Below, in pieces: positions 7,911-57,688 of a DNA stretch of 64,000 bases. A program made the translations under genes and the position numbers. The stretch lies in assembly GCA_963813065.1 (NCBI GenBank), contig CAWEXP010000006.1, positions 55,779 through 119,778 of the forward strand. Direction: 5' to 3'. The notes beneath the pieces were generated by a model. The model was given only the letters and a program-made list of their open reading frames with translations. It was not told the origin of the DNA and searched no databases. This stretch comes from Candidatus Kaiserbacteria bacterium (GTDB taxonomy: Bacteria; Patescibacteriota; Minisyncoccia; Phycocordibacterales; Phycocordibacteraceae). The number at the start of each line of letters is the position of its first letter. The first letter of the stretch is position 1.

Positions 7911-9116
7911 ATGTTTTTCAAGAAGCGAACATATCTCGATTATGCCGCGGGGGCTAAAGGGAATCCGAGCTCAGCGCATGAGGAAGGCCGCAGGTCCCGA
8001 GAGCAACTCGAGGGAGCCCGCAAAGACATTGCAACTCTGACGGAGGTGAAACCAGACGACATCATTTTCACCAGCGGCGCGACGGAGGCGAATGCCATCG
8101 CCATCCTTGGGATAGGTAACTGTGAAGGTCAGACCTTCACAAAAAAACATGCGCTGTATTTGCCGAGTGCCCACGCGTCGATAGTCGAAAATATGAAATT
8201 GCTCGAGGAACGGGGAGTCGTGGTCGAGCCGTTGCCGATTAAAAATGGACAAGTTGATTGCCCAGCACTCGAAAAAATGATTCGACCGGAAACGGTGCTT
8301 GTTGCGATGGACGCGGTCTGTGGTGAGACGGGGACAATCTGGAATACGCGTGAGGTTGCAAATGTTCTGCGCGTGGCGGAGAAACGTTTTCTAGCTCCCT
8401 CGGGCCTCATCGGAATGAGTCAGCCAGTCGCGTCGAAAAGCTTTTTCCCCTCACGGGCTCTTCTGCACGTGGACGCGAGTCAGGCGCCGATGACCGAAAA
8501 GATTTCGCGCGCACATTTCTCGGCCGACACTTTGGTTTTTGATTCGGTGAAAGTCGGTGGGCCGCGTGGCGTCGGGTGCCTCATCGCGCACCGTACCATT
8601 CCCATCGCTCCCTTATATAGAGGCGGCGGCCAGGAGCGCGGCCTGCGACCAGGCACCGAGAATCCCGAGGCGGCGAGAGATTTTGCGCGGGCATTACGGA
8701 CTGCGAATGAAAACCATGATGCATTTCGTGCACACTCAACTTCGCTTAGGGCGCTTCTGCTCAAGGATTTAGCAAGGTTAAACCTTAAGAATAATGCATC
8801 AAGGTTTAACCTTGCTATAAATGCCGGCAAGGAAGTCGCTCCACACATTTTGAATATCTCTCTGCCCGGCAAGGATACCGATTATCTCGTCGCGCTCCTC
8901 GATGAGGCCGGGTTCGCCGTCTCGACGCGGAGCGCGTGCGAGACCGATTCAGAAGAGGGTTCGCGCGCGGTCTTTGCATTGACCAATGATCTCGAACGCG
9001 CGAAATCAACCCTCCGCATCTCGTGGGGACCTGCCACCTCCGACCGCGATCTTGCGCGTTTTGCCGCCGAACTCGTGCGTCAGGTCGCCTTCATTGACAG
9101 CACGGCTTCGCGGTAG
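7911..9116 (+). CDS. Class V aminotransferase / cysteine desulfurase family protein
   Basis: NifS/IscS-like layout (TSGATEANAIAI..., HVDASQA..., SACETD near the C-terminus). Confidence 0.7.
   Translation: MFFKKRTYLDYAAGAKGNPSSAHEEGRRSREQLEGARKDIATLTEVKPDDIIFTSGATEANAIAILGIGNCEGQTFTKKHALYLPSAHASIVENMKLLEERGVVVEPLPIKNGQVDCPALEKMIRPETVLVAMDAVCGETGTIWNTREVANVLRVAEKRFLAPSGLIGMSQPVASKSFFPSRALLHVDASQAPMTEKISRAHFSADTLVFDSVKVGGPRGVGCLIAHRTIPIAPLYRGGGQERGLRPGTENPEAARDFARALRTANENHDAFRAHSTSLRALLLKDLARLNLKNNASRFNLAINAGKEVAPHILNISLPGKDTDYLVALLDEAGFAVSTRSACETDSEEGSRAVFALTNDLERAKSTLRISWGPATSDRDLARFAAELVRQVAFIDSTASR
8770..8817. repeat. REP-like palindromic element inside the cysteine desulfurase CDS (17-bp inverted arms TAGCAAGGTTAAACCTT, 14-nt spacer)
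   Basis: Perfect 17-bp inverted repeat. Core AGGTT(T)AAACCT is shared with the REPs flanking the RAYT at 56974 and 57668. Reads through in frame (LARLNLKNNASRFNLAI). Confidence 0.6.
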
Positions 9117-9128
9117 CATCATAGGCCT

Positions 9129-9911
9129 ATGAATATCGAGGAACTCTCAAAGTCTCAACTGATATTGCTCACGATTCTTGTGAATTTCGTTACCTCGGTC
9201 GCGACCGGTATTTTGACGGTGTCCTTGCTCGACCACGTTCCGGCGGTGGTGACCCAGACGGTCAATCGTGTGGTCGACCACACGATCGAGACCGTCACGA
9301 CGGCTCCGGCGGCAGTGATAGCCGCGACACCCATCGCTACTCCTGCGCCCTCGAATCAGGATCTCGTGACGAGCGCACTCTCGGCGTCTGACGCACGTTT
9401 CGTTGCTATTTATCCTGCCGACATCGGTACCTCGACGCCTGCCATCGCTATCGGTACCTACCTGCCCAAGACGCGTGCGATTGTGACCGCCGCACAGAGC
9501 GCCCTGCCGAAGGAGGTGCTCGTCGGGTTCACCGATGGCTCGTATGTCGGCGCCTCGCTCTCGCACGAAGGTCGCGGCATCGCAATCTACGGCTTCGCGG
9601 ACAAGGCACCACTCTTCCAGACCTCAGCGCCGGAGCTCGTCTCTGCGAACAATTTGAAGCTTGGTGAGACGGCACTCGCCATCGCCGCCGACGGAAGCGC
9701 GACCACGGGCATCGTCGCGCGCGTCGGCACGGATGGCATCCACACGACCTTACCGGACATCGGTGCGGGTAGTGCGACCGTCGATCTCTCGGGCAACCTC
9801 ATCGGCATTGCCGCGGGCGGCACCGCCGGGCTCTTGATCCCGACCGACGCCATTCTCGCACTCCTCACCGCCACCTCCACGACGGCGACCTCCACGCCGG
9901 TAACGCACTAG
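9129..9911 (+). CDS. Membrane-anchored Ala/Thr-rich hypothetical protein
   Basis: N-terminal TM helix. C-terminal segment [17 protein letters not shown] faintly recalls a trypsin-like fold, but no catalytic Ser motif. Confidence 0.4.
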
Positions 9912-15629: not shown

Positions 15630-15682
15630 TCACGAGTGCTCACCAAGCAAACAAAACAGAGCGCTCGGGCCGCTAGGCCAAT

Positions 15683-16654
15683 TCAACTCTGTTTTGTTCG
15701 CTTGCCTCGCACTCGTTTGCCAGCTTGCGGAGCCACGGCTTTTTGGCGACGGGCGTACTGCCACAGTTTAGCCGAAAGGGTAGGGAGAAGTGATTCTTTT
15801 GTGCGTTCATCACGCAAAAATTCGCCGACGATTTTGTACTCGAGACCGAGTTCGTTGAGGCGTAGTGCCTGCCCGGCTCGCTCGCGAGACGGGTCGCCAA
15901 CTTCTGCGCGCACGCGGGCGACCTCTTCGATAAGTCCGCGCTCCAGAGCGCTCGCGAGTCGCGCATCAATGTGTGCGCGCAATTCTTCGCGTGGTGGATC
16001 GATCATGATCCACTCGATTTGGTATTTGGGAAGGTCCTGTTTGTTCAGGTCAGACCTAAACAGTTGCTGTTTAGGTCTGACCTGAACAGGTCGCAGAGGG
16101 ACAGAGCCGCGAGCGGCAATAATCTCGAGCGCGCGGACGAGTCGGCGACGATTCTGCGGATCGAGCTCGGCCGCGCGGCGCGGGTCGGCTGTTTGTACTC
16201 TCGCAAACAGTTCTTCGGTCGAGAGCGTTCGAGCTCGGCGCGCAGTTCTGGATTCATGGCCACACTGCCGGGCAAACCTTTCAGCAATGCATCAAAATAA
16301 AAATGCGTCCCGCCGGCGAGGATCGGCAATTTCCCACGCGCGTTATCTCTGCGATCAGTCGCTCCGGCGTCGTGGACAAAATCTCCTGCCGAATAACTTT
16401 CGATTGCGTTGCGAATATCGATAAGGTGGTGAGATATGCCACGCATTTCCTCGCTCGTGTATTTTCTCCGTGCCAATGTCGAGGCCGCGGTAGACTTGGC
16501 GTGAGTCGACCGAAATCGACCTCGCCCCCCGCGCGAGCGCTTCTTGCACGGCCCGCGCGGATTTCCCCGAGGCGGTCGGCCCGGCGATGATAAGGATTTG
16601 CTCTGCCATCAGCCGCGATGGTATCCATAAATGTATGAAAGAAATGAAAAGCAA
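15683..16654 (-). CDS. miaA: tRNA dimethylallyltransferase MiaA, split into three ORFs by two apparent 1-nt frameshifts and carrying an in-frame palindromic insert
   Basis: P-loop GPTASGKS; motifs GISHHLIDI and ILAGGTHFY; C-terminal RALEIIAARG and WQYARRQ. Frame breaks at ~16448 (AAAA run) and ~16205. Confidence 0.65.
16037..16093. repeat. Palindromic element inserted in frame in miaA (CAGGTCAGACCTAAACAG-ttg-CTGTTTAGGTCTGACCTG plus imperfect flanks)
   Basis: 18-bp perfect inverted arms with 3-nt loop, extended by imperfect pairing. Translates without a stop in the miaA frame as RPVQVRPKQQLFRSDLNKQ. Confidence 0.7.
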
Positions 16655-26591: not shown

Positions 26592-26907
26592 TTTTTCAAA
26601 GAAGCAAGAGCTTCTGGAGTAGGAAAAAGAAAAAAGCCGCTCACGTTCGCCAGCCGGCGGACTACAACCAACTCCTTACATTTATTCCTAGTTTTCCAAA
26701 CTCTGCTCCCGGAACATCACCTCCATATACCGTCTCTTTTCAATAGGGAATACATGGAAAATATGGCTCACCAATTGAGGGTTATTCGATTGATGGAAAG
26801 AACGGATGGTGAAGTTAAATGCGTTTAAATACCTTGAGTTCGGCGACTCCTTCATTCCGTGAGACTAATATAACTTGCTGGCGAATGGGTGTTAGAATAG
26901 GCCAATC

Positions 26908-29418
26908 ATGGGCCAAATATCGAAAAAACGGGACAATAAAGACATTTCTCTCGAGCAGTACCAACATACAACTGTGAAGCGGGCCAATAATCCGCAAGTC
27001 GGACTCGTTAGCGGTACCTTGGATTCAAAGCCGAAAAAGAAAACATACCAACATGACCCGTATATTGATCCAACATTGTCTTGGGCGGGTAAGGCCGAAG
27101 GTGCTTCGTTTGGTGTTGATACTGTCTCGCTTCATATCCACGAACGGATAGATCCAAAAAGAATAATAAAACAAGTCCTAAAAAAGACTGAAGAAACAGT
27201 TAAATTGCAGCCATCACTTTTTGAACAACCGAGCGAAAATTTGAATACAGAAAAAGAGTTTGATTTTTATGGCCACACCAAAAACTGGTCAAATCGTCTT
27301 ATCGCCGGAGACAGCTTGCTCGTCATGAACTCTCTTCTGGAAAAAGAGAAAATGGCTGGGAAAGTACAGATGATTTATATAGATCCCCCGTATGGGATTA
27401 AATACAACTCAAACTTTCAACCTTTCACAAATAAGAGAGACGTGAAAGACAGGGACGACGACAGCATTCCTGCTGAACCAGAGATGATTAAAGCGTTTCG
27501 AGACACGTGGGAGCTTGGCATCCACAGCTACCTCACATATTTGCGAGATCGTTTACAGCTTTCGCACGACTTGCTGCATGAAAGCGGTAGTATTTTCTTG
27601 CAGATCTCCGACGAGAACGTACACCACATTAGAGAGTTGCTAGATGAGATTTTCGGGATGGAAAACTTTGTGGCGCAGATCAACTTCCGTAGCATGTCCC
27701 CGCTCGGTCAGTCTGGGATGGCGAGGGTCTACGATTACATACTCTGGTACGCCCGCGACAAGAAGAAAATGAAATACCGATCTATTTTTATAAACAGAGA
27801 AATCGAGGAGGAGCCCGAATTTTGCTATCTCGATACTGGCGATGGTTTGTATAAGAAGTTGAACCGCGAGGAAATAGCGGCTTTGCCTGCCGATCAAAGA
27901 AAAAAGATCTTCAAGAGGTCAACCCTCACGTCTTCTGGCTACACGCCCTCTTGCACCTATCCTTTCGAGTTGGGTGGGAAGGAATATCGTCCGCTTAGTG
28001 GGAAAAGTTGGCGAACTCATCCGGAGGGAATGAAGAAACTGATTGCCAAGCACCGCATCTTTGTACTCGGCCAGAATCCGTACTTCAAGCAGTACCACTC
28101 TGATTTTCCGTTCGTGCAACTCGAAAACGGATGGAAGGATACGGCCGCAGGATTTAGTGATCAGAAAATATATGTTGTGCAGACAAACAATAAAGTGATC
28201 GAGCGATGTGTTCTGATGGTCACGGATCCAGGAGATTTGGTCCTGGACCCGACTTGTGGCTCTGGCACGACAGCGTATGTAGCAGAACAGTGGGGTCGTC
28301 GTTGGATCATGTGCGATACTTCCCGTGTGGCAATCCAACTTGCAAAACAACGGTTGATGACCAGTCAATTTGATTATTACGAAATGGCACAACAAGAAGA
28401 AGGTGTCTCGTCTGGATTTAAATATAAAACCGTTCCACACACCACACTTGGAAGTGTTGCGAACAACGAACTAACCAAAGAAGAGACTCTCTATAATCAG
28501 CCATTTGTCATAAGAGATAAAGTTCGGGTGACTGGACCATTCACAGTAGAGGCCGTTCCGGGCATCCGCACCAAGCCAATTGAAGGAAATCTCCCGGATG
28601 TATCTGACAAAACAAATCCAACGAATCCGATTTCCGAGAAATTGAACGACTACCTCGATAGCATTCGTGCTTCAGGCATTCGCTCATACCACAATGAAGG
28701 AATTACATTCAACAGCGTAGAAGTTTCCGAAGGATTTAATGAAATTCATGCATTTGGAAATATTGATAGCAATGGGGAATATAAAAAGTGTGCAATAGTC
28801 TTTGGCCCTGATTATGCTCCCATGGAACAGACCCAAATTGAGCGAACAATGGACGAAATTAGAAATATGGCTGAGAAACCAAACATGGTCATCTTTTGTT
28901 CGTATGCTTTTGACCCCGAAGCATCAAAGGATGTTGATAACATAAAAATATCCGGTCTCCAGATTTTGAAAGCTCAAATGAATACGGACTTGCTCACTAA
29001 AGATTTAAAGAAAAAAGCAAACGCAGACAGACCATTTTGGCTCATTGGGGAACCAGATATTGAAATCAATAAAACCAAAGAAGGGAAATTCCAAGTGGAG
29101 GTGAAGGGATTCGATTACTATGATCCTCGTACCCAGGAGCTCAAGGGTGGCAGTACAGACAAAATTGCTGTCTGGATGATTGATACAGATTACGACAATA
29201 GATCCCTATTCCCCTCACAGATATTTTTCCCAATGCAAGATCAGAAAAGAGATTGGACTAAACTTGCAAAAGCGTTAAATGGGAGTGTAGACGAAGAGTT
29301 ATTGGAGCAATATACTGGCACAACATCAATACCTTTCGCATCAGGCGATAAACGAACCATAGCGGTAAAAATAGTCGATGACCGCGGTGTTGAGATGTTA
29401 GTGGTCAAGAAAATATAG
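26908..29418 (+). CDS. mod: Type III restriction-modification Mod subunit (N6-adenine/N4-cytosine beta-class DNA methyltransferase) with long C-terminal extension
   Basis: Motif IV IYIDPPY precedes motif I DPTCGSGTT (beta-class order). 836 aa, with ~350 aa after the MTase core. 4-nt gap to res. Confidence 0.75.
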   Translation: MGQISKKRDNKDISLEQYQHTTVKRANNPQVGLVSGTLDSKPKKKTYQHDPYIDPTLSWAGKAEGASFGVDTVSLHIHERIDPKRIIKQVLKKTEETVKLQPSLFEQPSENLNTEKEFDFYGHTKNWSNRLIAGDSLLVMNSLLEKEKMAGKVQMIYIDPPYGIKYNSNFQPFTNKRDVKDRDDDSIPAEPEMIKAFRDTWELGIHSYLTYLRDRLQLSHDLLHESGSIFLQISDENVHHIRELLDEIFGMENFVAQINFRSMSPLGQSGMARVYDYILWYARDKKKMKYRSIFINREIEEEPEFCYLDTGDGLYKKLNREEIAALPADQRKKIFKRSTLTSSGYTPSCTYPFELGGKEYRPLSGKSWRTHPEGMKKLIAKHRIFVLGQNPYFKQYHSDFPFVQLENGWKDTAAGFSDQKIYVVQTNNKVIERCVLMVTDPGDLVLDPTCGSGTTAYVAEQWGRRWIMCDTSRVAIQLAKQRLMTSQFDYYEMAQQEEGVSSGFKYKTVPHTTLGSVANNELTKEETLYNQPFVIRDKVRVTGPFTVEAVPGIRTKPIEGNLPDVSDKTNPTNPISEKLNDYLDSIRASGIRSYHNEGITFNSVEVSEGFNEIHAFGNIDSNGEYKKCAIVFGPDYAPMEQTQIERTMDEIRNMAEKPNMVIFCSYAFDPEASKDVDNIKISGLQILKAQMNTDLLTKDLKKKANADRPFWLIGEPDIEINKTKEGKFQVEVKGFDYYDPRTQELKGGSTDKIAVWMIDTDYDNRSLFPSQIFFPMQDQKRDWTKLAKALNGSVDEELLEQYTGTTSIPFASGDKRTIAVKIVDDRGVEMLVVKKI

Positions 29419-29422
29419 GTGT

Positions 29423-32152
29423 ATGGAATCTGTAGACAAAAAACAAGGATTCGTAATCAACTCACCATACTTCGAACCGAAGTATCATTTTGAATACGAC
29501 GAAAATAGCGAGAGTTATCACAGAGAGGATGGCCGCAGAAAGGCCGGGTACTATGCAACTGTAGGTAAACAAGAAGTGGGGAAAGGGGCGACGCAATTCC
29601 TAGAGTTAGAGCTGGCTAGCATGATACGGCCACGAGTTAAAGAGTGGAAAGAAAAAGGATATCCAAATGTGACTTCAACTACAAAAAAGCTCCTGGAGCA
29701 CTGGAACAGATTTGATCAAGAGGGATTTGAGCAGGATGGTCAGAGGTACTTCTGGTGTCAGATAGAGGCGATTGAAACTATCATCTGGCTTGTTGAGGCT
29801 CCGGATGCCGTAAAAGTAGGAATAAATCTAAAAGACAGGAGCGATAGTGATTGGATGCGGGCCTGTACAAAGCTGGCGACGGGTACGGGAAAAACGGTTG
29901 TGATGGCGATGATTATTGCATGGCAGGTGCTCAATAAAGTTGCTAACCCAAAAGATACGAGATTTACGAAAAATATACTCGTGATGGCACCTGGCATTAC
30001 CGTGCGACATCGTCTCGAAGTGCTAATTCCAAGTAACGAGTCAAATTACTATGACGTCTTCAATATCGTACCCGCTTCACTTAAAGAATATCTATATCAA
30101 TCAAAAATAGCGATACTCAACTGGCAGTCAGTTGCTCCTAAGAAGAAGGAGTCCTTACCGAAAGTAATGCGAGATATGATGGGAGAGGAGAGCGATGGGG
30201 CATTTACGAGAAGAGTTCTATCTGAACTTCCGGGAGACGCACCGATATTGGTAATAAACGACGAGGCGCATCACTGCCATAGGCATACTGCTGAGATAGG
30301 AAAATCAAAAGAGGATAAAGAACAAGAAAAGAAAGAAAATGAAGAAGCGACAGTTTGGGTACAAGGTTTAGATAAAATACATAAAGCACGGGGAATTATT
30401 ACCGCTTATGACATGTCCGCAACTCCTTTTGTTCCGAAAGGTCGTAGCTCCAATACGGGATTCGAACTGTTTAACTGGATTATATCTGATTTTGGTCTGC
30501 ATGATGCCATCGAATCCGGTTTGGTAAAAACACCAACAATTGCAGTAAGGGACAGTTCGTATTCGTCAGAAAAAGTGGCCGGAGACAAGTCAAAGTTGTT
30601 CCACATCTATTATGAAGAAGGTATTCGGGAAGATCTCAATAAAAAATGTGAACCGAATGTAGATTTACCTGACCTTGTGCGAAGTGCGTTCAAGATCCTC
30701 TCAACAGATTGGTTGGCAACTAAAAACGAATGGAGTAAAGGAGTACCACCATCGATGATAGTGATTTGTAATAATACCTTTACATCTCAGCGAATTGAAT
30801 ACTCCATTTTAAATAGTCATTTAGGCGTATCAGAGATGGCAGATAAGAGTAAGGTATTGAGAGTCGATAGCACGGCTGAAGACATAGAAGATGAATCTCT
30901 TCGAGAAAAGTTCAATACCGTTGGTAAACAGGGGAAGCCAGGTGCAGATGTCGAATGTGTGATTGGTGTGAATATGCTCTCAGAAGGATGGGATGCAAAT
31001 AACGTTAAACAGATACTCGGCTTGCGCGCCTTTACATCACAATTGCTTTGTGAGCAGGTTGTAGGCAGAGGGCTCCGTAGAATGAGCTACGATATTGATG
31101 AAAGTACAGGGTTATTGAAACCAGAGTATGTAACAGTTTTCGGTATTCCCTTCAGCTTCTTACCAATAGAGGGTAAGGAGGGACCAGATCCTGGCCCAGA
31201 AAAGCCAAAAACTTTCGTACAGGTGCTACCACAGAAAAGACAATATCAAATTCTATTTCCCAACATCTTGAGGGTGCAAAAAGAGACAGAGCACTTTGTC
31301 GATATTGATTGGAAGAAAACAGAAAAATTGGCCTTGTCTCCAACAGAGAACCCTGTGTGGGTTCAGGTTGCTCCCACCATTGATCGCCCCGACTTGTCTC
31401 AGTCTCAAAAGATGAGTTCGATTCAAGAATATCTCGGTAAAGACTATCGCTTAAAACAAAGCGTTTTTGCGATTACTTCGAGTATCAAAAACGGTTTGGA
31501 CGACACTTGGAAGAATATAGATGATGGTAATAAATTCCAACAAATATTTAAAATTGTTTCTGATTTTATCGAGAAGAATGTAACTATAGATGCTGACAAA
31601 AGTAATCACGACGTGTATAAAAATATTCTTATTGGTTTAAACACCACCAAAATAACAGCAATGGTTAGACAGGCGATAAACTTGAGTCAAGACACGAAGT
31701 CTTATCCAATACCCGATCCAATCAACAAATTCAAAACAACATCAGTAATGACGCCGTGGTACACAACCCGGGATACCTACTCTTCGCCTGAAATGAAATG
31801 CCACATTAGTCATCTCGTACAAGATAGTAGATGGGAAAATATAGGGAAGATTCTCGATAATGAAATCGATGATGTTACGGCTTGGGTCAAGAATGACCAT
31901 TTGGCTTTCACCATTCCCTACATACACAAAGGGTTGATGCGATCTTTTTTCCCCGATTTCGTTATTCAATATAAAGGGAACCGACATCTACTTCTGGAAA
32001 TAAAAGGAAAGGAGAGAGAACAAGACCAAACTAAATGGGATTCGGCGAAGCTGTGGTGTGAAGCCTTAAATTCCGACAAAGATTCTTGGGGAGAGTGGCA
32101 GTTTAGAGTTGTGAAAAATAAGCCAAATATTTCCGACCTAAAATGGAAATAA
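29423..32152 (+). CDS. res: Type III restriction enzyme Res subunit (SF2 helicase + PD-(D/E)xK nuclease)
   Basis: Walker A LATGTGKT; DEAH box INDEAHHC; helicase motif VI QVVGRGLRR; C-terminal PDF...LEIKGKE nuclease motif. Confidence 0.75.
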   Translation: MESVDKKQGFVINSPYFEPKYHFEYDENSESYHREDGRRKAGYYATVGKQEVGKGATQFLELELASMIRPRVKEWKEKGYPNVTSTTKKLLEHWNRFDQEGFEQDGQRYFWCQIEAIETIIWLVEAPDAVKVGINLKDRSDSDWMRACTKLATGTGKTVVMAMIIAWQVLNKVANPKDTRFTKNILVMAPGITVRHRLEVLIPSNESNYYDVFNIVPASLKEYLYQSKIAILNWQSVAPKKKESLPKVMRDMMGEESDGAFTRRVLSELPGDAPILVINDEAHHCHRHTAEIGKSKEDKEQEKKENEEATVWVQGLDKIHKARGIITAYDMSATPFVPKGRSSNTGFELFNWIISDFGLHDAIESGLVKTPTIAVRDSSYSSEKVAGDKSKLFHIYYEEGIREDLNKKCEPNVDLPDLVRSAFKILSTDWLATKNEWSKGVPPSMIVICNNTFTSQRIEYSILNSHLGVSEMADKSKVLRVDSTAEDIEDESLREKFNTVGKQGKPGADVECVIGVNMLSEGWDANNVKQILGLRAFTSQLLCEQVVGRGLRRMSYDIDESTGLLKPEYVTVFGIPFSFLPIEGKEGPDPGPEKPKTFVQVLPQKRQYQILFPNILRVQKETEHFVDIDWKKTEKLALSPTENPVWVQVAPTIDRPDLSQSQKMSSIQEYLGKDYRLKQSVFAITSSIKNGLDDTWKNIDDGNKFQQIFKIVSDFIEKNVTIDADKSNHDVYKNILIGLNTTKITAMVRQAINLSQDTKSYPIPDPINKFKTTSVMTPWYTTRDTYSSPEMKCHISHLVQDSRWENIGKILDNEIDDVTAWVKNDHLAFTIPYIHKGLMRSFFPDFVIQYKGNRHLLLEIKGKEREQDQTKWDSAKLWCEALNSDKDSWGEWQFRVVKNKPNISDLKWK

Positions 32153-34234: not shown

Positions 34235-34494
34235 GTGGGTAGAGGCTTGCGCCTCTCATACGAGTTTCCCCGTATGGCCGGTAAAGACGACCCCACATGA
34301 TGGGTTTCCGCGTCTTTACCGGACTTCTCCAGCCATGCCCAGCCCGGAGGCTGAGTTTAGGCCATATCGCACCCTTGTATCGTACTCGGTCTGGAGCTTA
34401 TGTGAAGGCGGAACGTGCTTTCTACAAAAAACCAGAAACAGAAAAAACCATAGATTCTATGGCTTCTTCTGAGGTTATATTAACTGGCCTTCGG

Positions 34495-37031: not shown

Positions 37032-37331
37032 TCAATACTCCGGCTCCTGATGCTTCTTGGGGTCAACTTCCCACCAGAATTTCTTCGAGAAGTGTTTGGC
37101 GCGACTGCAGACGCTCTTCAAATAATATAAGTCGTTGGTGGGGATGCCTTCGAGGATGAGGCCAAGACGCGACATGGTGAGCGGCACGAGCCCGTCCTTC
37201 TTGCGCGAATAATTAAGATGTTTCTGGAAGAATTGCAGGAGCTCGCCGCGCTCCGTCTTCCGCTGACGCCCGCCCGGCGCTGACGCCATCTTCTTCTCGA
37301 TGTCGGGCAAAATCTCCTTGATGGACTTCAT
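37032..37331 (-). CDS. Hypothetical protein
   Basis: 99-aa basic ORF overlapping the murA start. Confidence 0.35.
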   Translation of the reverse strand: MKSIKEILPDIEKKMASAPGGRQRKTERGELLQFFQKHLNYSRKKDGLVPLTMSRLGLILEGIPTNDLYYLKSVCSRAKHFSKKFWWEVDPKKHQEPEY

Positions 37332-38632
37332 GACGTTTCAATTTCAGCACCGAGAGACTTGAGGCGCGTGACGATATCCTCATAGCCGCGGGAGATCGAG
37401 TAGACGTTGCGGAGGGTTGAGCGACCGGCGCTGCCGAGCATGGCGACGAGGATGATGGTCGCGGGGCGCAGTGCGGGCGGGCAGACGACCTCGGCCGCCT
37501 TGAGCCGCACGGGGCCGGGGATCGAGATGCGATGCGGATCGTGGAGCACGGTCTGCGCGCCGAGTCGATCGAGCTCGGTGTAATAGATCGCGCGCTTCTC
37601 GTAGACCCAGTCGTGGATAAGGGTTGTGCCCTTGGCCACGAGCGCAATGGCGGCGAAGAAGGGGAGATTGTCGATGTTGAGACCCGGATAGGGGCGGGCA
37701 TGAATTTTTTCGGGGAAGGCAGTCAGGCTCGACGGCTTCAGGTGCAGGTCGATGATCTTGGTAATGCCATTCTCTGAGACGCGTGGATTCTTGAGCGAGT
37801 ATTTCAATCCCATTTTCTCGAGAATAAAAAGTTCGGTCTCGAGGAACTCGATGGGCGCACTGCGAATGACGAGCGCTGACTTCGTCACGATGGCCGCAGA
37901 GATGAAGAACATCGCGTCGGTCGGATCTTCGGCGACGGTGTATGAAATATCTTTTTTAATCTCTCGAATGCCGCGCACCGTGAGTGTCGTCGAGCCGGTG
38001 CCCTCAATCTCGACGCCGAGCGCTTGCAAGAATCCGCAGACTTCCTGCACCTGATAATTCGCCGAGGCGTACTTGATGATGCTCGTGCCGGGAATCTTCG
38101 CGGCGGCGAAGAGGGCATTAATGGTCGCGGTGTCGCTCGATTCGTAGAGAGTCACTTCGGCCGGGTGCAGAGTCGTATGCGTAATACGGTAGCGGTCACG
38201 GAGTGCGCTGATGGCAATGCCGAACTTCTCGAGCGCGTAGAGATGCGGCCGCGCCGAACGGAGGCCCAAGGTACAACCGCCCGATTGCGGCAACTCGAAT
38301 TTTTTGAAACGGTGCACCAAGGGGCCGATGAACATCAAAATACTGCGCGTCTTGGTCGCGGCGACCTTATCAATTTTATCGAGGTTTAACCTCGATGAGG
38401 GGGCAACGATGAGGCTCGAACCGTTCCATTCCACCGAGACACCAATCGACCGCAGGACTTCGACGAGTCGGTGCACCTCCTCGATCTTCGGCACGCGCTC
38501 GAGGGTCGTGACACCATCGTTCAGTAGCGAAGCGGCGAGGAGTGCGACCGCGCCGTTCTTCGAGCGCGAGGTGATGACTTCGCCTCTCAGTTTCTTGCCG
38601 CCCTCAATCACGAAATTCATGCCGTCGGCCAT
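37328..38632 (-). CDS. murA: UDP-N-acetylglucosamine 1-carboxyvinyltransferase
   Basis: EPSP-synthase fold pattern: KLRGEVITSRSKNGAVALLAASLL..., active-site region RSARPHLYALEKFG (catalytic Cys replaced). Confidence 0.8.
   Translation of the reverse strand: MADGMNFVIEGGKKLRGEVITSRSKNGAVALLAASLLNDGVTTLERVPKIEEVHRLVEVLRSIGVSVEWNGSSLIVAPSSRLNLDKIDKVAATKTRSILMFIGPLVHRFKKFELPQSGGCTLGLRSARPHLYALEKFGIAISALRDRYRITHTTLHPAEVTLYESSDTATINALFAAAKIPGTSIIKYASANYQVQEVCGFLQALGVEIEGTGSTTLTVRGIREIKKDISYTVAEDPTDAMFFISAAIVTKSALVIRSAPIEFLETELFILEKMGLKYSLKNPRVSENGITKIIDLHLKPSSLTAFPEKIHARPYPGLNIDNLPFFAAIALVAKGTTLIHDWVYEKRAIYYTELDRLGAQTVLHDPHRISIPGPVRLKAAEVVCPPALRPATIILVAMLGSAGRSTLRNVYSISRGYEDIVTRLKSLGAEIETS
38378..38396. 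repeat. REP palindrome ATCGAGGTTTAACCTCGAT within the murA coding sequence
   Basis: 19-bp perfect palindrome identical to the core of the RAYT-flanking REPs; encodes SSRLNLDKI in frame. Confidence 0.6.
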
Positions 38633-42289: not shown

Positions 42290-43030
42290 ATGCACCACGC
42301 TTTTTTCATCGAGGCGGAAGCGGAAGCGGGAACGGCACTCGCGCTCGAGAGTATCGAGCGCGAGTTGGGGATGAAGGCGGCGGGGAATCCAGACGTCGTC
42401 GTTTTGAAATATGGATTGCTCTCGGTTGAGGATACGCGACGAATTATTGAAATAGCTTCAACGAAAGCATTTGGGAAGGCTAAAACTTCCTCTGAAGGAC
42501 GTTCGCCCGACGCTTCGGGAGAAGCGTCTAGGGCGATTGTTATCGCGGCGAGTCGCGCGTATCACGAGGCGCAGAACGCACTCCTGAAAATATTCGAGGA
42601 GCCCGCGCCCGGCACACACCTATTTCTCATTCTCCCCTCAGCGGGGATGCTCTTGCCGACGCTGAAATCTCGAATGCAAATTGTGGACACGCCGTGTCCT
42701 AAATCAGATTTAGGACACGCCGTGTCCAACTTGCCGGAAGCGGCGCAAAAGTTCCTCGCGGCGACGAGCGAGAAGCGCACGGCAATTGCGAAGAAGCTCG
42801 CAACGGGCGATGACGAAGACGATCGACGTGCCAATCGTGACGAGGCGCTCGCGATTGTGAATGGCATTGAGCTCGCGGCATACCGCGCATCGAAGAAACA
42901 GCCGGACCCAGCACTCTTCGCGCTCCTCTCCGACCTCGCAATCCTGCGCACGTATCTCCACGAACGCTCGGCGCCGGTCCGTATGATTCTCGAGCACGTC
43001 GCGCTCGTGATTCCAAAAAGCTTGAAATGA
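42290..43030 (+). CDS. holB: DNA polymerase III delta' subunit
   Basis: AAA+ clamp-loader pattern ALLKIFEEPAPGTHLFLI...LPTLKSRMQ. Confidence 0.65.
   Translation: MHHAFFIEAEAEAGTALALESIERELGMKAAGNPDVVVLKYGLLSVEDTRRIIEIASTKAFGKAKTSSEGRSPDASGEASRAIVIAASRAYHEAQNALLKIFEEPAPGTHLFLILPSAGMLLPTLKSRMQIVDTPCPKSDLGHAVSNLPEAAQKFLAATSEKRTAIAKKLATGDDEDDRRANRDEALAIVNGIELAAYRASKKQPDPALFALLSDLAILRTYLHERSAPVRMILEHVALVIPKSLK
42685..42727. repeat. 43-bp perfect palindrome inside holB (GGACACGCCGTGTCC-TAAATCAGATTTA-GGACACGCCGTGTCC)
   Basis: Two copies of a 15-bp self-palindrome flank a 13-bp palindromic spacer; read in frame as DTPCPKSDLGHAVSN. Shares the CCTAAA(T)CAG core with the miaA element. Confidence 0.65.
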
Positions 43031-56973: not shown

Positions 56974-56994
56974 TATCGAGGTTTAACCTCGATA
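56974..56994. repeat. REP palindrome TATCGAGGTTTAACCTCGATA (RAYT 3' flank)
   Basis: 21-bp perfect palindrome overlapping the RAYT stop. Confidence 0.7.
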
Positions 56995-57657
56995 TTCTTG
57001 ATAGTATTCATGCGCGTCAGTAATCATTTCCTCAAGAGAGGGGAGTTCCTCGTAGAGTTCAAAAACCGTCATGCCAAGGAGATGTTTTTCTAGTCGTTGC
57101 AACTTCAGAAAGTCTGGAAGACTCGAGTATCGGTACCGGATGAGTTCGTTTTTAATCTGCGATACGTTTCCGTCGCCATTTTTCCATGCAGAATCAAAGA
57201 GTTTTGCAGGATTCAGATGGACATAGGCAACCAACCGCTTAAGATACAGATCATCGTCGACAATCTTCGATTTAAACGTTCCCGCAAACAATGCGCCCGT
57301 TCGTTCATATTTAGTATTAAAGTACATCGTGTAGCCCGTACAAAGTTTTTGCATGAAGCGCGCAATGCCTCCCTTGTCTATCTCTTTAAGTACCAGATGA
57401 AAGTGGTTTGGCATCAAACAATATGCACCGATTTCTACAATGGCGTTTCCACGGTCAAAACTCGAATCAAGAATTACATCCGCCAATCTTTTGTTTTTAA
57501 GATTAGAGGTCTGTACTGGTTTTTCGCCACCGCTCGTAAAGAGGGCGAGCAGAAAACGTTCATAATCTGCAGAATCTTGATACACCAGCCGTTTATCTAC
57601 CCCACGGTTGTAGCAGTGATACCACTCATCAATTCCAAATGCCGGTCGCGTAGGCAT
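56983..57657 (-). CDS. REP-associated tyrosine transposase (IS200/IS605-like HUH Y1 transposase)
   Basis: HUH motif HFHLVL, conserved Tyr region (AYVHLNPAK), ~220 aa; flanked on both sides by the same REP palindrome. Confidence 0.7.
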   Translation of the reverse strand: MPTRPAFGIDEWYHCYNRGVDKRLVYQDSADYERFLLALFTSGGEKPVQTSNLKNKRLADVILDSSFDRGNAIVEIGAYCLMPNHFHLVLKEIDKGGIARFMQKLCTGYTMYFNTKYERTGALFAGTFKSKIVDDDLYLKRLVAYVHLNPAKLFDSAWKNGDGNVSQIKNELIRYRYSSLPDFLKLQRLEKHLLGMTVFELYEELPSLEEMITDAHEYYQEYRG

Positions 57658-57667
57658 GACCGCATCT

Positions 57668-57688
57668 TATCGAGGTTAAACCTCGATA
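57668..57688. repeat. REP palindrome TATCGAGGTTAAACCTCGATA (RAYT 5' flank)
   Basis: 21-bp palindrome, variant of the 56974 copy. Confidence 0.7.

Follow-up and report, generated by a model that had tools for sequence, protein, structure and literature searches.

A REP/REPIN-RAYT system in a CPR genome, with repeat copies embedded in frame in murA and a cysteine desulfurase gene

The stretch of DNA analysed here (64,000 nucleotides in full, referred to as the window) comes from a Paceibacteria/Kaiserbacteria-like CPR bacterium, judging by the source names of matching sequences, and carries a REP/REPIN-RAYT system, as REPs were found to flank a transposase whose best structural match is to a RAYT. 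The palindromes embedded in the murA and cysteine desulfurase genes of this window are members of the same REP/REPIN family, which has an AGGTTWAACCT core hairpin. We consider it quite likely that genic copies of this REP-RAYT family persist where they offer a stop-free frame on a tolerant surface, that the desulfurase copy arose by insertion and the murA copy by overwriting, and that both are passengers. The length-neutral copies are the most unusual feature of the REP family of the window. REP-RAYT systems, known mainly from Proteobacteria, are thereby extended to the gene-dense, ultra-small CPR/Patescibacteria, and a link of REP or RAYT to CPR was not found in the literature searched. What is new is the phylum, and a hairpin family that has no GTAG or CGTC tag; REPs within genes of this sort are already known from other phyla (Di Nocera et al. 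2013, PMC3733652). The features concerned are as follows.

7911..9116, plus strand: class-V aminotransferase / NifS-IscS-like cysteine desulfurase, 401 aa, intact
8770..8817, plus strand: REPIN-like doublet, two inverted REP variants with cores AAGGTTAAACCTT and AAGGTTTAACCTT and a 14-nt spacer
37328..38632, minus strand: murA (UDP-N-acetylglucosamine 1-carboxyvinyltransferase), 434 aa, intact, catalytic Cys loop present
38378..38396, minus strand: single REP inside murA, 19-nt palindrome ATCGAGGTTTAACCTCGAT; the 21 nt at 38376-38396 are identical to the RAYT flanks
56974..56994, no strand assigned: REP copy TATCGAGGTTTAACCTCGATA, perfect 21-mer, overlapping the 3' end of the RAYT gene
56983..57657, minus strand: RAYT-type Y1 (HUH) tyrosine transposase, 224 aa, single copy in the window
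57668..57688, no strand assigned: REP copy TATCGAGGTTAAACCTCGATA, perfect 21-mer, 11 nt upstream of the RAYT start codon

The AGGTTWAACCT core occurs five times in the 64-kb window against 0.00 expected, and the 19-mer, with up to three mismatches allowed, gave seven strand-matches at four sites against 0.01 expected from shuffles. The embedded palindromes are beyond chance, and the family is multi-copy in related CPR genomes as well. A scan of the window allowing up to six mismatches to the 21-mer revealed no further REP copies beyond the five, and no isolated 9-mer half-sites were found in the window. One copy is located in murA, two make up the desulfurase doublet, and two flank the RAYT gene, so that three of the five are intragenic while the other two overlap or abut the RAYT gene. 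The copy number is therefore low, with no copy free in intergenic DNA, and the extragenic location of classical REPs is not seen in the window. Stable hairpins were predicted at all five sites, with an RNA hairpin of -10.3 kcal/mol (z = -3.6) for the murA copy and one of -25.3 kcal/mol (z = -5.7) for the doublet. The REP consensus TTATCGAGGTTWAACCTCGATA has neither a GTAG nor a CGTC tag at the hairpin foot, which places it outside the superfamilies of those names. No Rfam family was found at the murA or desulfurase site when the whole window was searched at gathering thresholds. Since identical MurA and desulfurase protein sequences have been recorded from more than one source, the embedded REPs are not an assembly artefact.

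An earlier sequence-only reading had placed an exact REP core, read as SSRLNLDKI, within murA and a paired variant with 17-bp arms at 8770-8817 within the cysteine desulfurase gene. Both were found, the former at 38378-38396 in the 434-aa ORF and the latter in frame, and the naming of the repeat as a REP is borne out by the two perfect copies that flank the transposase gene. The 21-mer in murA is identical to those on both sides of this gene, an identity for which the calculated expectation in 64 kb is ~5e-7. The notion that an R-L-N-L-type peptide happens to be written in palindromic codons, whether by coincidence or by protein-level conservation, accordingly has a negligible probability, and we regard it as already refuted. 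Some MurA orthologs do have ARLNLE or xxNLD at the same place, but the NLD orthologs use other codons without the palindrome, the shuffles gave 0.01 matches even with three mismatches, and the same DNA stands in non-coding positions flanking the transposase gene. In other genes, moreover, the REP is read in all three frames, as SRLNLD, YRGLTS and EVKPR. A leucine-rich-repeat-like RLNL protein motif was considered and set aside, since conservation of the DNA extends to synonymous sites and the repeat is also present in non-coding DNA and in other frames.

By a rough ORF map, the genome is ~92% coding. The doublet is free of stop codons in one of its three frames and the murA copy in two of three; because stop-free frames are limited in this way, the in-frame position of the copies is a survivorship filter and not a bias. 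Such a gene-dense genome would leave little intergenic room for REP copies, which would be why they sit in genes, and genic copies would persist only where the palindrome is stop-free (AGG TTW AAC CTN, read as R-L/F-N-L) and the surface segment is tolerant. The embedded copies are probably tolerated, neutral passengers rather than functional parts of the enzymes.

The transposase matches PF01797 (Y1_Tnp) with 30.4 bits against a cut-off of 23. Against NF047646, the NCBIfam REP_Tyr_transpos equivalog, it scores 31.6 bits, which is under the cut-off of 80; it belongs to a distant clade. Across 32 aligned homologs, residues H85, H87 and Y145 do not vary. The AlphaFold2 model has a pLDDT of 92, and its top Foldseek match in the PDB is 4er8_A, the E. 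coli REP-associated tyrosine transposase (E = 7e-5, TMt 0.68). The 4er8 structure is E. coli TnpA-REP bound to a REP hairpin, and the next-best folds are the TnpA proteins of IS608 and ISDra2. The HUH motif and catalytic tyrosine are thus combined with an IS200/IS605-type fold closest to TnpA-REP. A sequence search of the PDB with the transposase gave nothing meaningful; matches came from the fold search alone. The RAYT gene ends on the TAA that forms the loop of its downstream REP, so that this TAA is its stop codon, and the protein ends in EYRG; many homologs likewise have a C-terminus that is translated REP (..IEVKP or ..YRG).

The layout of a Y1 transposase gene flanked by the repeat is seen in the window and also in L059, L081, L236 and others, with the RAYT genes in L236 flanked by doublets. 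Homologs identified by tblastn (30-67% identity) adjoin or are flanked by either the single REP TCGAGGTTWAACCTCGA or the doublet AAGGTTWAACCTT at more than 20 independent loci. The desulfurase doublet belongs to a sub-family that differs from the murA and RAYT copies, with a CAAGG stem rather than CGAGG, and since RAYT homologs adjoin either variant at these loci, the two window variants are one hairpin superfamily with one transposase clade serving both. This clade gave 6650 matches, mostly unannotated or labelled 'transposase', and the homolog clusters are mostly on one or few contigs. The nearest GTDB representative genome, Paceibacterota SMAG_U6126 (77-79% DNA identity to the window), has an orthologous transposase with 67% aa identity, the same neighbours on both sides, and flanking REPs. 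With one copy in the window and synteny on two sides, the RAYT appears to be a single-copy (within the window), vertically inherited Y1/HUH tyrosine transposase. It presumably acts on the AGGTTWAACCT hairpin, and this activity is putative.

A palindrome family together with a single-copy Y1/HUH transposase flanked by the repeats is also the arrangement of the REP-RAYT systems of Proteobacteria (REPtrons; E. coli TnpA-REP 4er8, Pseudomonas, Stenotrophomonas), and vertical inheritance at a syntenic site and the best structural match, 4er8, are further points of likeness. Unlike REPtrons, the system of the window has no GTAG/CGTC tag and a very low copy number, and most of its non-flanking copies are intragenic. 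Its 224-aa transposase, which has an extra C-terminal region, is under the NCBIfam cut-off for RAYTs, and its host is a CPR bacterium.

The identity of MurA is supported by NF006873 (306 bits against a cut-off of 297), by a match to PF00275, and by 8000 homologs with up to 80% identity. The palindrome is read in murA as TCA TCG AGG TTA AAC CTC GAT, giving SSRLNLD(KI), of which SSRLNLD makes up MurA residues 79-85. At the REP segment no indel was found against 119 orthologs, apart from a few one-residue gaps, and SSRLNLD aligned column for column with PPEKISLD-type ortholog sequences; E. cloacae MurA differs from the window MurA in this region by only two one-residue gaps. The DNA of the orthologs at this site consists of ordinary codons, such as CCG GAG AAG TTC GCC CTC GAC, GAA AAA ATG AAT CTC GAC, or GAA AAA ATT AAT CTA GAT, and the palindrome is absent. 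As 119 orthologs show no change in length, and ortholog DNA has ordinary codons, the murA REP is not an insertion but a length-neutral replacement of seven codons by SSRLNLD. This agrees with the earlier view that murA does not seem lengthened. The orthologs have similar but not identical residues at the site and lack the palindrome, and the nucleotide match to the REP is far beyond chance, contrary to what the earlier reading had named as grounds for its refutation. The closest MurA available is ~80% identical and the MurA tree is star-like; neither an empty allele of murA nor the order of the changes was seen among these sequences.

The replaced and REP-encoded residues are similar (K to R, I to L, and S or N to N, with L and D retained), and the nearest murA ortholog matches the REP at 12 of 21 positions. 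Relatives that have N-L-D write it as AAT CTC GAC, compared with AAC CTC GAT in the REP, and in the N-L-D orthologs seven of nine codon positions match the REP half-site. We infer that the length-neutral overwriting in murA arose by a templated multi-base change. It would most likely have been a templated mutation rather than transposition followed by deletion, with either an ectopic REP donor or the other arm of the hairpin itself as the template, and it was probably seeded where resident N-L-D codons were already close to one arm of the REP. The nick or the single-stranded DNA would presumably come from the RAYT. Quasi-palindrome template switching and REP gene conversion are similar in that a multi-base, length-neutral change perfects or copies a palindrome; they match both murA and the locus-specific complementary flanks described below, and would offer the most economical account here. 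Evolution of REPs by gene conversion has been proposed (Higgins et al. 1988, as cited in PMC3733652).

The main rival for murA is an ordinary 21-nt REP insertion, adding seven codons, after which selection for length favoured a deletion of exactly 21 nt from the codons next to it; we regard this as unlikely. Single REPs do add residues elsewhere, with a net change of +6 aa in UvrD, +4 aa in TruB and +3/4 aa in MnmA as called from alignments to distant solved homologs, and the strict length constraint on the murA segment among the 119 orthologs would favour a compensating deletion. The same alignments to distant solved homologs gave a net change of 0 at the single REP in both LigA and YchF, however, so that the length-neutral outcome recurs. 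The insertion and deletion route also requires two precise events and passes through an intermediate that would probably harm an essential gene, and the resemblance of the REP-encoded residues to those replaced is predicted by templated replacement and not by an indel route. A broader form of the templated reading is that RAYT-linked REPs in CPR bacteria spread both by insertion and by length-neutral templated overwriting seeded at arm-like codons, that the same surface segments of the essential enzymes MurA, LigA and YchF were rewritten to S-R-L-N-L-D without an indel, and that hairpins extend into flanking codons by self-templated correction. We offer this generalisation tentatively, as a possibility with the odds somewhat against it. 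If templated overwriting is true, the length-neutral copies would be a natural repeated experiment on selfish DNA rewriting essential proteins, and would bear on the spread of REPs, which has been a puzzle since the 1980s.

A possible decayed REP was looked for in MurA orthologs with ARLNLE. Two of these (P0025 and P0083) share GCA AGG CTA AAC CTC GAG, but the 18-nt identical run is not significant because they belong to a single clade at 82-93% identity.

In the desulfurase gene, the 17-nt arms of the doublet are TAGCAAGGTTAAACCTT (8770-8786) and AAGGTTTAACCTTGCTA (8801-8817), and the element is translated in frame as LARLNLKNNASRFNLAI. Inverted REP doublets are the replicating unit known as REPINs (Bertels and Rainey, PMC3116915), and the element at 8770-8817 has this structure, with two inverted REPs and a short spacer that form one long hairpin, and with spacer families that recur across unrelated loci. 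It differs from REPINs in being much shorter (36-48 nt for elements of this kind), in that about half of the sampled doublets are in ORFs, and in that the outer flanks are often locus-specific inverted repeats.

Compared with its nearest orthologs the window desulfurase has 8 additional aa, and compared with most it has ~7, in keeping with the ~7 aa estimated earlier from the sequence. Among 119 homologs, the extra segment is present only in the window protein and in P0130 (63% identity). In a neighbour-joining tree of conserved columns the window protein (P0121) pairs with P0122, and P0130 with P0191; each pair has one filled and one empty member, which differ by a net gain of 8 aa. At the filled sites 54 of 57 nt are identical, spacer included (window 8766-8822), while the flanking codons have diverged. 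The spacers of this doublet family are also found at the unrelated loci L198 and L201. By the tree and the shared DNA, two lineages that are not sisters gained the doublet independently, at one and the same site and from one REPIN family. The empty site of the second pair, …ACA GAC CTA TAT ATA AAT, is already similar to the right arm in its outer half, …TTT AAC CTT GAT ATA AAT, and therefore only ~24 nt were truly added, with ~8 codons overlaid. In the protein model, doublet residues 291-300 follow a long helix and have a pLDDT of 56, which is consistent with a surface loop. By comparison with its orthologs, the doublet is a true in-frame, lineage-specific insertion with a net gain of 8 aa in a low-confidence loop. 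Alignment with orthologs, which had been proposed as the check on both genes, thus gives an insertion for the palindrome residues of the desulfurase and a length-neutral change for those of murA.

Rickettsia palindromic elements (RPEs) are the classic case of repeats carried in frame; RPE-1 is ~100-150 bp and adds tens of residues. The elements of the window are like RPEs in being palindromic repeats in frame within functional genes and tolerated in surface loops. They are unlike RPEs in being 19-48 nt long and linked to a RAYT, and one of them adds no residues. The suggestion that ORFs had been colonised in the manner of RPEs holds for the desulfurase, where a lineage-specific in-frame insertion absent from the nearest orthologs adds 8 aa, but not for murA, where seven codons were replaced and 0 aa added. 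The comparison with RPEs is best taken as an analogy and not as membership, since sequence, size and host are unrelated. According to PMC3733652, CGTC-type repeats, including the short intragenic RPE-4 and RPE-6, apparently have no dedicated transposase. That paper also reports REPs of the GTAG/CGTC type inside genes of Proteobacteria, Opitutus and Rickettsia, namely those for DNA ligase, UvrD, tRNA synthetases and the tRNA pseudouridine synthase TruB, among others. Like those, the REPs described here lie wholly within ORFs whose protein products are known, and the gene classes affected are in many cases shared; they differ in REP superfamily and in phylum, and the inserts there are said to 'interrupt' or 'decorate' genes. 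Overwriting of the length-neutral kind seen in MurA, LigA and YchF was not found in the passages of PMC3733652 consulted.

The occurrence of the repeat in other genomes was determined from collection and metagenome scans; as the DNA pattern itself was what led to every related locus, there is an ascertainment bias. The collection was scanned with the 17-mer core, for which ~70 chance matches are expected in 596 Gb by calculation, a number inflated by palindromic terminator stems, and only multi-copy genomes were used. Singletons in unrelated phyla, many of them followed by T-runs, were discounted as chance matches or terminator stems. The core is common to several CPR classes. Omnitrophota KR11 and Saccharibacteria SRP263991 are multi-copy with copies mostly in intergenic pairs; five of five copies lie in long ORFs in Sungbacteria 54_21, and three of four in Minisyncoccia MFD01223. 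The metagenome doublet scan gave more than 120 contigs with shared spacer families. By a stop-to-stop ORF criterion, long ORFs contain 27 of the 135 single copies and, of the doublets, 57 of 124 (48 of 106 after deduplication). Doublets within ORFs are always in the sole stop-free frame combinations, RLNL..RFNL, RLNL..GLT and KVKP..GLT. Hosts confirmed by Pfam are LigA, ArgRS, UvrD, YchF, CysRS, Mfd, TruB, RsmE and a SAM methyltransferase, and in all Pfam confirmed ten of the host genes as housekeeping genes. Reading of the translations gave IleRS, ValRS, LeuRS, PheT, TopA, RecG, UvrC, RecJ and LigA as doublet hosts, of which the Pfam check covered LigA (L122). The repeats in these CPR genomes are largely inside housekeeping genes, and short lineage-specific CPR loops (RLNL/RFNL, GLT, EVKP) can be repeat-derived and not adaptive.

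The hairpins could be selected cis-elements that serve in mRNA stability or processing, as a translational pause or internal attenuator, or as a protein-binding site, although we hold this to be improbable, and less likely than the insertion and deletion route for murA. The hairpins are stable (-10 to -25 kcal/mol, z -3.6 to -5.7), the doublet DNA is 95% conserved between lineages with diverged flanks, and REPs elsewhere in bacteria are known to affect mRNA stability and termination (PMC3733652). The high conservation of the doublet is equally compatible with recent acquisition, however, and the sister desulfurase orthologs lack the element, just as the 119 MurA orthologs lack the REP. The host genes are functionally unrelated, and the copies are identical to the transposase-gene flanks.

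Known DNA uptake sequences (USS/DUS) occur at ~1 per kb, and in Neisseria inverted DUS pairs are found at gene ends. If the motif were such a sequence, point mutations would be pulled toward it in naturally competent CPR cells through preferential uptake and recombination, and length-neutral copies where the resident peptide is already similar, inverted pairs at gene ends, and a core common to several CPR classes would all be in line with this. We nevertheless consider an uptake-like drive very unlikely. The density in the window is only ~1 per 13 kb (five copies in 64 kb), the physical link to a RAYT gene is tight and recurrent, doublets with family-specific spacers behave as mobile units, and true insertions exist too.

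In orthologous genes on different contigs, a doublet was found at the same site with the spacer sometimes inverted (L136/L174 and L125/L156). Locus-specific outer flanks that are complementary over at least 3 nt were present in 45 of 106 unique doublets, compared with ~1.7 expected. Such flanks would fit an insertion into hairpins that were there beforehand, or equally a hairpin that extends itself by self-templating.

The outer flanks of doublets, each made up of two inverted REPs and a short spacer, were often found to be inverted repeats specific to the individual locus. Among the 106 unique doublets left after removal of duplicates from metagenome loci L118-L237, such flanks were at least 3 nt long in 45 cases (approximately 1.7 expected) and at least 5 nt long in 25 (approximately 0.1 expected), and they were likewise seen for doublets lying within ORFs. 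In two pairs of these loci, L136 and L174, and L125 and L156, orthologous genes carry a doublet at an identical codon position with the spacer in opposite orientation, which suggests either that the loop enclosed by the inverted arms was flipped or that doublets inserted independently in each direction.

The stop codon of the RAYT transposase gene (bp 56,983 to 56,985) is the TAA of the flanking REP's loop. The C-termini of many RAYT homologs are also translated REP, in a frame that varies between them (IEVKP, YRG, YQG). At 3590-3640 of L059, a locus from a related species, a partial direct duplication (AAAATATCGAGGTTTAAAATATCGAGGTTTAACCTCGATA) was observed ahead of the REP adjoining the RAYT gene.

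The window also holds a second palindrome family, with the core AGGTCWGACCT, at two sites, one of which lies in the cysteine desulfurase gene together with a third variable insert.

Features of the second palindrome family and the third variable insert
8121-8141: second-family palindrome TGTGAAGGTCAGACCTTCACA, in frame inside the desulfurase gene, translated CEGQTFT
~8385-8465: third variable insert FLAPSGLIGMSQPVASKS, desulfurase residues ~160-177
16042-16088: perfect second-family hairpin, 47 nt, -42.6 kcal/mol

At TGTGAAGGTCAGACCTTCACA the desulfurase is approximately 5 aa longer than its nearest orthologs. The FLAPSGLIGMSQPVASKS insert is patchy among orthologs, some having it, some lacking it and some having unrelated peptides (KSSAQAARPIQH...) instead. 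Within this insert, a comparison of the window with the DNA of locus L002 showed identical runs of 25 and 21 nt that include synonymous sites, and pLDDT in the predicted desulfurase model is 50-64. The insert may be a further in-frame mobile element. The 47-nt hairpin is located at the ends of two convergent ORFs, 15636-16085 and 16045-16476.

Perfect hairpins (stem of at least 8 bp, loop of at most 6 nt) are in excess across the window, with 55 stem/loop combinations, or by our count roughly 35 distinct sites, compared with 6-11 combinations in shuffled sequences. Several are intragenic, for example those at 9265-9286, 42337-42365 and 42693-42719.

A block of low G+C content (42%, compared with 52-59% elsewhere) was observed at approximately 26900-32150; it contains two large ORFs, 836 and 909 aa long, and may have been horizontally acquired. 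The window has eight tRNAs in total, one of which adjoins a LOOT RNA.

34241-34363, minus strand: LOOT RNA (RF03000), 84 bits
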